From positions 6,024-70,023 of the forward strand of contig CARJMT010000007.1 in the NCBI GenBank assembly GCA_949002095.1: DNA of 64,000 bases, read 5' to 3'. Shown here piece by piece: positions 15,177 through 15,249 of this stretch (position 1 is its first letter; each line of letters begins with the position of its first letter). Both the position numbers and the translations under genes were made by a program. This DNA is from an uncultured Lachnospira sp. GTDB lineage: Bacteria; Bacillota; Clostridia; Lachnospirales; Lachnospiraceae. A model generated the notes under the pieces. That model did not search any database. It was not told the DNA's origin and was given only the letters and a program-made list of their open reading frames with translations.

Positions 15177-15249
15177 GTGGCTGTGGCAGACTTGGTAATG
15201 CACCGGATTGTGGCTCCGGAGTATGTGGGTTCAAATCCCATCAGTCACC
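15177..15249 (+). tRNA. tRNA-His(GTG) with C73 and no encoded G-1
   Basis: GTGGCTG/CAGTCAC, CCGGA-TTGTGGC-TCCGG, GTGGG-TTCAAAT-CCCAT, discriminator C; nucleotide -1 is T. Confidence 0.7.

Follow-up and report, generated by a model that had tools for sequence, protein, structure and literature searches.

A tRNA-His gene without an encoded G-1 and a Thg1-like protein in the genome of an uncultured gut phage

The additional guanylate at position -1 (G-1) is a nearly universal identity element of tRNA-His. Bacterial histidyl-tRNA synthetase (HisRS) generally requires G-1 together with the discriminator base C73; the main part of the G-1 base is to place the 5'-phosphate correctly, and some HisRS enzymes can do without it (PMC9976931). 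In Escherichia coli, an unusual RNase P cleavage of pre-tRNA-His at position -1 leaves an acceptor stem of 8 bp (PMC11143913). Here, we analyzed a stretch of 64,000 nucleotides (contig CARJMT010000007.1, positions 6,024 to 70,023; referred to as the window), which is part of an uncultured phage genome of approximately 142 kb (ENA contig). This contig carries both a tRNA-His(GTG) gene that lacks an encoded G-1 and a gene for a Thg1-like protein (TLP). A preliminary description of the window had linked the two, suggesting that the phage enzyme adds G-1 after transcription, in the manner of archaea and eukaryotes, or repairs tRNA 5' ends. We found that the tRNA-His gene and the TLP are both of known kinds. 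As judged from their distribution among related sequences, they probably occur independently and are not a co-evolved dedicated pair.

The closest relative of the window enzyme with a solved structure is the TLP of Bacillus thuringiensis (BtTLP), which adds a Watson-Crick-paired G-1 to C73-containing tRNA-His in vitro with a kcat/KM of 5500 M-1 s-1, equal to that of yeast Thg1, and which is 50-fold less efficient opposite A73 (PMC3061083). BtTLP also acts on 5'-truncated tRNAs, a non-His tRNA included (PMC3061083, PMC3701042), and its ATP-dependent activation step is much faster with 5'-truncated tRNA than with full-length tRNA-His (PMC3701042). The TLP-carrying bacteria known so far encode G-1, so that the physiological role of bacterial TLPs is an open question (PMC3061083, PMC3701042, PMC6471195), and the TLP literature leans towards a function in 5'-end repair. 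All TLPs characterized to date work on tRNA-like acceptor ends (PMC6471195, PMC12632743). With respect to phages, genome papers state, as annotation without experiment, that a Thg1-like product "may modify phage or host tRNAs" (PMC3601020, PMC6292376), and a comparative survey of jumbo phages counts Thg1 among the sporadic RNA-repair genes (PMC7824862). A 2019 review of TLPs mentions neither phages nor viruses (PMC6471195).

The tRNA-His gene and the TLP of the window

The tRNA-His(GTG) gene is located on the forward strand at 15177..15249. ARAGORN placed it at 15177-15250 and the Rfam tRNA model RF00005 at 15177-15249, where it scored 61.9 bits (gathering score, 29). With slashes marking the gene ends, the sequence reads ...CCGC-T ACT / GTGGCTG TG GCAG ... 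TTGTGGC ... CAGTCAC C / CTA. The acceptor stem GTGGCTG/CAGTCAC forms seven pairs, one of which is G4.U69, and G1 (15177) pairs with C72. The anticodon is GTG, the discriminator is C73 at 15249, and the C-T-A that follows C73 means that the CCA end is not encoded. The base at position -1 is a T (15176), the last base of the ACT spacer after the preceding tRNA-Met gene. The canonical fold and the absence of an encoded G-1, both of which had been described previously, were thus borne out by the two gene models and by direct reading of the sequence. The gene thus has the cloverleaf with a GUG anticodon and the C73 discriminator of a bacterial tRNA-His. It does not have the encoded G-1 and the 8-bp stem, because the T at -1 cannot pair with C73.

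The assignment of position -1 depends on the register of the acceptor stem, and an alternative register that would supply a G-1 had been named as the case that would overturn the description. We therefore aligned the tRNA-His genes of 12 related phages, counted the cloverleaf pairs and compared the counts with those from 500 shuffles. In the called register, the acceptor helix was 100% paired, 96.4% of all alignment cells were paired, and both sides had changed in 13 of the 21 pairs; none of the 500 shuffles attained the observed pairing and covariation values. Upon sliding the 3' partners by one column, only 39-40% of the cells remained paired. In particular, G1-C72, U2-A71, G3-C70, the T at -1 and C73 were invariant in all 12 genes. 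The register in which G15177 would itself be G-1 was excluded, as the one-column slide destroys the pairing and would also displace U8 and the T-arm. On the evidence of this covariation, the gene is selected as a normal tRNA with a 7-bp acceptor stem.

The TLP gene (35633..36508, forward strand), at a distance of 20 kb from the tRNA-His gene, encodes a protein of 291 residues. The start codon was assigned to the ATG at 35633 and not to the GTG at 35618 because a Shine-Dalgarno sequence, GGAGG (35621..35625, forward strand), is located 7 nt upstream of this ATG; the gene call of the source contig uses the same start. The protein matched the Pfam family PF04446 (Thg1) with E=1.4e-29 and 103 bits (cut-off 29.2) and the phage family PHROG 4717, "tRNA-His guanylyltransferase", with E=1e-89. 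The Pfam Thg1C model scored 21.2 bits (cut-off 26.3), and residues 158-290 aligned with the C-terminal half of BtTLP at 79 bits. The closest solved structure was that of BtTLP (PDB 4KGK, E=2.5e-58), with both halves of the protein covered, followed by an archaeal TLP (5AXK, E=1.6e-12) and Candida Thg1 (3WBZ, E=1.2e-5). The two motifs of tRNA-His guanylyltransferases that had been noted in the sequence are present. RIDGKAF (residue 31; 35723..35743, forward strand) aligns with RIDGAHF of BtTLP and contains the first catalytic aspartate, D33, and the SDE of GYTQSDEIT (residue 77; 35861..35869, forward strand), also aligned to BtTLP, provides the second and third catalytic carboxylates. RIDGKAF and QSDE were invariant in an alignment of six diverse phage TLPs. 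Two stretches of the window protein, roughly residues 121-157 and 240-265, are insertions relative to BtTLP. By these sequence comparisons, the window enzyme is of the bacterial TLP type and not a eukaryotic Thg1, and it is predicted to be a templated 3'-5' nucleotidyltransferase. It belongs to a large phage family, with 164 TLP-positive records in INPHARED, and its identity to the INPHARED members does not exceed 56%.

Distribution of G-1-less tRNA-His genes and of TLPs among phages

To place the missing G-1, we examined the leader base of phage tRNA genes in general. A T occupies position -1 in 21 of the 29 window tRNAs, where it is the default leader base, and in 62-72% of approximately 1,400 distinct phage tRNAs. 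A G at -1 was found in approximately 2% of tRNAs in related arrays and in 10% of those in an arbitrary IMG/VR sample, a figure that includes tRNA-His genes with G-1. Since T is the default of the array and G is rare, the missing G at -1 is not improbable in itself, and it is notable only against bacterial tRNA-His genes.

A pattern scan of IMG/VR, taken as an arbitrary sample, yielded at least 78 distinct tRNA(GTG) genes. At loci with five or more tRNAs, 35 genes had a G at -1 and 20 of 55 (36%; among IMG/VR loci L184-L303) did not; when only canonical array genes with C73 were counted, the numbers were 28 with and 15 without G-1 (35% without). At loci with fewer than five tRNAs, where the genes are probably host tRNAs beside prophages, 21 had G-1 and two lacked it. 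Eight isolated phages drawn from BLAST matches all carried T at -1 together with C73 (8/8). Four of these are T4-like, namely Escherichia phage slur14, Klebsiella phage KpV477, Serratia phage CBH8 and Enterobacter phage KKP_3262, and the others are cyanophage S-PM2, Vibrio phage nt-1, Streptomyces phage Comrade and the crAss-like phage cr116_1 (INPHARED loci L384-L391); none of the eight is among the TLP matches listed. The E. coli tRNA-His query matched 357 INPHARED records, most of them in the T4-like group. Phages of Escherichia, Klebsiella, Streptomyces and Synechococcus were absent from the best 60 and from an evenly spread 60 of the 164 TLP-positive INPHARED records; nt-1 and cr116_1 are represented by two records each, so that their absence from these matches is weaker evidence.

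Two unusual tRNA classes were also observed. A recurrent phage tRNA(GUG) with C1-G72, A73 and no G-1, which differs from the bacterial His identity set, was seen in Bacillus phage QCM8 (L392, 56-131) and at the IMG/VR loci L155, L184, L206 and L268, the TLP-positive Tsarbombavirus included; the tRNA-Asp of the window (16602-16675) also begins with C1-G72. An aberrant tRNA with GTG as its anticodon, which has U1-A72, U73, T at -1 and an unusual D-arm, was found in some relatives (L074, L087, L088 and L090). This tRNA adjoins a DUF2828 anchor gene, with a TLP within a few kb, as confirmed on the L074/L087 and L090 contigs.

If the TLP served the G-1-less tRNA-His specifically, the two would be expected to travel together. 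The phage genome does combine a G-1-less tRNA-His gene with a Thg1-family enzyme; across relatives and lineages, as far as absence can be scored on partial contigs, the two were not co-distributed. Fusobacterium phage Fnu1 has a TLP that is 47% identical to that of the window, and its tRNA-His (tatg/GTGGGAG...) encodes G-1. A TLP together with a G-1-encoding tRNA-His was also found at the IMG/VR loci L306, L309, L310/L311 and L383. The Fnu1-like tRNA-His genes (L183, 3067-3140, reverse strand; L306) combine the encoded G-1 with A73, a eukaryote-like combination, and with CCA, in genomes that also carry a TLP. The tRNA(GUG) of the TLP-positive phage QCM8 has C at -1 in addition to C1-G72 and A73 and cannot template a G. 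Vibrio phage vB_CoeS_P1 encodes a TLP that is 48.5% identical to that of the window, and its authors report zero tRNA genes. In mycobacteriophage Bombitas, a polynucleotide kinase is encoded two genes away from the TLP and an RNA ligase 12 kb away, and no tRNA was found within 20 kb of the TLP. The only tRNAs within 20 kb on either side of the TLP of Aeromonas phage 2L372D are tRNA-Ile and tRNA-Pro, which makes this genome uninformative.

The converse arrangement, a T-1 tRNA-His without a TLP at the syntenic site, was observed among close relatives. A flotillin-anchored search for tRNA-His and TLP in one locus returned 16 loci, which served for the comparison of gene order. Contig 178161 (IMG/VR 3300045988_178161, L168) carries the same gctact/GTGGCTG tRNA-His and the gene order of major vault protein (MVP), phosphoesterase and RNA ligase, and on this partly covered contig neither a TLP nor a YqeY gene was found in the MVP-phosphoesterase interval, the two flanking genes being approximately 450 nt apart. 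Likewise, contig 3300021400_001206, also partly covered, has a T-1 tRNA-His and no TLP between MVP and the RNA ligase. From this gene order, a YqeY/GatB-like gene, small ORFs and the TLP look like an accessory module that was inserted or deleted between MVP and the phosphoesterase. Of the contigs that carry both a TLP and a C73 tRNA-His, approximately three lack and approximately three encode G-1, which resembles the 35% background. A tRNA-His gene was found within 10 kb of the TLP in only 1 of 80, 6 of 79 and 0 of 26 loci of the IMG/VR and GTDB sets, so that co-occurrence at the contig level can be scored for only a handful. The part of the preliminary description that concerns chemistry therefore stands: since BtTLP adds G-1 opposite C73 in vitro, templated G-1 addition to this tRNA, which has C73, lacks G-1 and is accompanied by a BtTLP-class enzyme, is credible. 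The functional coupling of the two genes was not supported, given their independent distribution.

Possible roles of the TLP

We surveyed the neighbourhoods of 159 IMG/VR TLP loci by clustering the ORFs within 3 kb of the TLP. No conserved operon partner was found in this set; no neighbour cluster occurred at more than 27 of the 159 loci, and most clusters had no assigned function. The TLP is thus best described as a mobile stand-alone accessory gene. In the window, the YqeY/GatB-like protein (34385..34846, forward strand) is encoded upstream of the TLP, an arrangement shared with contig 085326. A metallophosphoesterase (37911..38705, forward strand), which has homologues downstream of the TLP at 15 of the 159 loci, follows 1.4 kb downstream, and a second metallophosphoesterase is located at 23269-23994. 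An RNA ligase of the DRB0094/Rnl5 type with an N-terminal OB fold (41197..42441, forward strand) was identified by PF09414 and PF21189 and by PHROG 968 (E=2e-59), with TIGR02306 below its cut-off. Additionally, the window encodes an HD-domain phosphohydrolase and a Pol-beta-type nucleotidyltransferase with a CodY-like HTH domain; a nucleotidyltransferase of this type was found within 10 kb of the TLP at 32 of the 159 loci. The kinase domain of an end-healing enzyme was not found in the window, where the match to bacterial Pnkp was far below the cut-off. An RNA-repair module would comprise a ligase, which is present, and a conserved linkage of the TLP with ligase or healing genes, which was not observed. 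By their annotation, the genes of the window are compatible with an RNA-repair toolkit and do not prove one.

We tentatively favour, with a confidence somewhat short of even, the view that the TLP is a generalist enzyme of tRNA 5'-end repair and maturation for which this tRNA-His is one probable substrate. A generalist of this kind would appear, from the family matches, to be carried by many unrelated large phages. The tRNA-His itself is an ordinary selected phage tRNA with the default layout of the array, that is, U at -1 and no CCA. Host RNase P would cut it at +1, because U-1 cannot pair with C73, unlike in the 8-bp stem of E. coli (PMC11143913), and would leave a 5'-monophosphorylated tRNA-His with a 7-bp stem, an unpaired C73 and no G-1. 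This p-tRNA-His would lack the main HisRS identity element (PMC9976931). By analogy with BtTLP, the TLP would activate the tRNA 5'-phosphate with ATP or GTP and then extend the end in the 3'-5' direction, with the 3' strand of the acceptor end as the template. Because extension is templated in this way, the same enzyme could rebuild 5'-truncated tRNAs of any identity and add a single G opposite C73 of a G-1-less tRNA-His.

Several observations weigh against this generalist role. The T-1 tRNA-His and the TLP occur together in the window, in contig 085326, whose TLP is 70% identical, and in contig 112927, and such co-occurrence in the closest clade is also what a dedicated pair would look like. 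The absence of the TLP rests on the listed tblastn matches for the isolates, and the IMG/VR loci are 10-kb flanks of partial contigs; the two-by-two association of TLP and G-1 is therefore qualitative. The linkage to the RNA ligase is loose, as a ligase of the window type was found within 10 kb of the TLP at 14 of the 159 loci. None of the 29 window tRNAs has an encoded acceptor mismatch at 1:72 or a 5' truncation, only G.U wobbles, which leaves no built-in repair substrate in sight. We know of no 5'-damaging host nuclease for this system, and our literature search found annotation-level remarks on phage TLPs and no test of one.

Two narrower roles lie on either side of the generalist reading. 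The phage may omit G-1 and have its own TLP add it after RNase P cleavage as the main selected function of the enzyme. The substrate fits this exactly, with its 5' G1, C73 and missing G-1, the three genomes just named hold both parts, the BtTLP-class reaction is as efficient as that of yeast Thg1 on its own substrate (PMC3061083), and bacterial HisRS generally needs both G-1 and C73 (PMC9976931). However, G-1-less tRNA-His genes are common in phage groups outside the TLP listings, TLPs are found together with G-1-encoding tRNA-His and in the reportedly tRNA-less Vibrio phage, T-1 relatives lack a TLP at the syntenic site, and the roughly equal split of TLP-positive C73 contigs is close to the background; a dedicated pair is thus unlikely. 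Alternatively, the TLP may be confined to repair, rebuilding host or phage tRNAs whose 5' ends were damaged, for example, by a defence nuclease or an exonuclease. The tRNA-His would then be used without G-1, used with a retained U-1, or weakly charged, as must hold in TLP-less phages. Hundreds of T4-like phages keep a T-1/C73 tRNA-His and are absent from the TLP listings, so a G-1-less gene must be tolerable, and some HisRS enzymes do tolerate the absence of G-1 (PMC9976931). The faster activation of 5'-truncated tRNA by BtTLP (PMC3701042), the polynucleotide kinase and the RNA ligase in the vicinity of the Bombitas TLP and the presence of a TLP in the reportedly tRNA-less Vibrio phage point the same way. 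Against this, the in vitro kinetics lead one to expect G-1 addition wherever the enzyme and a p-tRNA-His(C73) coexist, and neither a damaging nuclease nor an end-healing kinase was identified in the window. We regard a role in repair only as rather doubtful, if somewhat less so than the dedicated pair.

The TLP could also act on something other than a tRNA 5' end, for instance on other small RNAs or in a reaction akin to priming or capping, with its co-occurrence with tRNAs being incidental. The unconserved gene neighbourhood, the two insertions relative to BtTLP and the open physiological role of bacterial TLPs (PMC3701042, PMC6471195) leave room for this. The TLPs characterized to date all work on tRNA-like acceptor ends (PMC6471195, PMC12632743), however, and the TLP carriers among the matches listed are mostly large phages; we consider such a role improbable.

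The pairing of this tRNA-His with the TLP is a reasonable and easily tested hypothesis that finds no support in the comparative evidence. A phage with both a C73, G-1-less tRNA-His and a TLP nonetheless offers a simple natural substrate-enzyme pair for the question of TLP function. If the TLP does add G-1 to the phage tRNA-His, the addition of G-1 after transcription would have its first natural example within a bacterial cell, and bacterial-type TLPs would have their first substrate in vivo. A wider by-product of the analysis may matter more: the omission of G-1 is widespread in phage tRNA-His, including that of coliphages outside the TLP listings, and one may ask by what route, if at all, these tRNAs are charged with histidine in hosts that depend on G-1, such as E. 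coli. In the searchable literature, we found no description of this widespread omission, no discussion of G-1 in phage tRNA-His and no description of the histidylation of the tRNA-His of T4-like phages or S-PM2. It is conceivable, although we would not expect it, that the enzyme which adds G-1 to the phage's own tRNA-His in the cell is the TLP, and that phage tRNA-His more generally reaches or bypasses His identity by undescribed routes.

Further features of the window and comparison with known systems

The window has no nucleotide-level relative among isolated phages (megablast). Contigs that were binned or assembled with Clostridia of the gut and rumen, among them Lachnospiraceae, Robinsoniella, Lacrimispora and Flavonifractor, carry related TLP genes, and the host is therefore probably a gut Firmicute. 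The tRNA-His gene is part of an array of 29 tRNA genes on the forward strand (6675..18756, ARAGORN). CCA is encoded in none of the 29, and C-T directly follows the discriminator in 19. In a tight cluster, tRNA-Pro (15024-15097), tRNA-Met(CAT) (15101-15173) and tRNA-His, all on the forward strand, are separated by spacers of exactly 3 nt (CTT and ACT) and probably form one precursor; the upstream tRNAs would keep a 3-nt non-CCA trailer once RNase P cuts the next tRNA. A tRNA-Ile with the anticodon TAT is located at 6675-6748. Three tRNAs carry a CAT anticodon; one of these, at 10956-11025, measures only 70 nt, with two mismatches in its acceptor stem. Mitochondrial-style 5' editing of encoded acceptor mismatches was considered for the array and rejected, as 0 of 29 tRNAs has a mismatch at 1:72. 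A G1.U72 wobble tops the acceptor stem in eight or nine of the 29 tRNAs (approximately 29%; 8/28 counted), with starts at 6675, 8903, 11810, 12278, 12593, 12916, 15414, 16756 and 17022, against a background of about 10-12% in approximately 1,400 other phage tRNAs. TLP-containing loci tend to rank high for this wobble, which, in view of the small and non-independent samples, is a lead only.

Several other gene groups were identified. Four consecutive genes at 43048-46146 constitute a complete Preiss-Handler route of NAD salvage (a nicotinamidase-like isochorismatase, NAPRTase, a nucleotidyl (NaMN/NMN) adenylyltransferase-like protein and NAD synthase), which may counteract defences that deplete NAD. 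The block at 22485-33259, whose gene order is largely kept in the relatives L167 and L168, encodes a microbial PARG-like macrodomain protein, a Ser/Thr-phosphatase-like metallophosphoesterase, the nucleotidyltransferase with the CodY-like HTH, a flotillin/Band-7 protein, a DUF7192 protein, a MoxR-like AAA ATPase and an 837-residue protein with an MVP shoulder domain. An ORF with a C-terminal GIY-YIG homing-endonuclease domain (60087-61001) follows the topoisomerase II subunits (53851-58090) and a DNA ligase (58297-59442).

We compared the tRNA-His and the TLP with the described systems and found them to be similar to each in part. BtTLP (PDB 4KGK/4KGM) shares the RIDG..F and QSDE motifs and the TLP-type WRQxDAxxNS segment with the window enzyme, from which templated 3'-5' addition, including that of G-1 opposite C73, would be expected of the latter. 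In contrast to BtTLP, the window TLP is phage-encoded and carries the two insertions, and whereas the tRNA-His of B. thuringiensis encodes G-1 and offers no G-1-less substrate, the phage genome encodes one. The window TLP is a member of the PHROG 4717 family, which includes Bacillus phage Bc431v3 gp143 and proteins of Fusobacterium phage Fnu1 and Pseudomonas phage 201phi2-1 and which has been annotated as tRNA-modifying or RNA-repair without experiment (PMC3601020, PMC7824862); unlike these isolates, it comes from an uncultured gut-phage lineage with a probable Clostridia host. The tRNA-His genes of the T4-like phages (slur14, KpV477) and of S-PM2 resemble the window gene in having G1-C72, C73 and T at -1 within a tRNA array, but these phages are absent from the TLP listings and most of them encode CCA.

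Eukaryotic Thg1 (yeast, human and Candida; 3WBZ) belongs to the same superfamily, has the same catalytic carboxylates and adds a G to a 7-bp stem after RNase P cleavage. Its sequence match to the window enzyme was weak. Eukaryotic Thg1 reads the His anticodon, and the G that it places opposite A73 is non-templated, whereas the C73 of the phage tRNA is consistent with templated addition by a TLP (PMC3061083). The closest functional analogy is provided by the archaeal TLPs and the mitochondrial TLP2 of Dictyostelium, in which a G-1-less gene, a C73 template and a TLP-class enzyme are combined (PMC3061083, PMC6471195). In those archaeal and mitochondrial systems, the need for the enzyme follows from the genome-wide lack of any G-1-encoding tRNA-His, whereas the host of this phage presumably has a G-1-encoding tRNA-His of its own.

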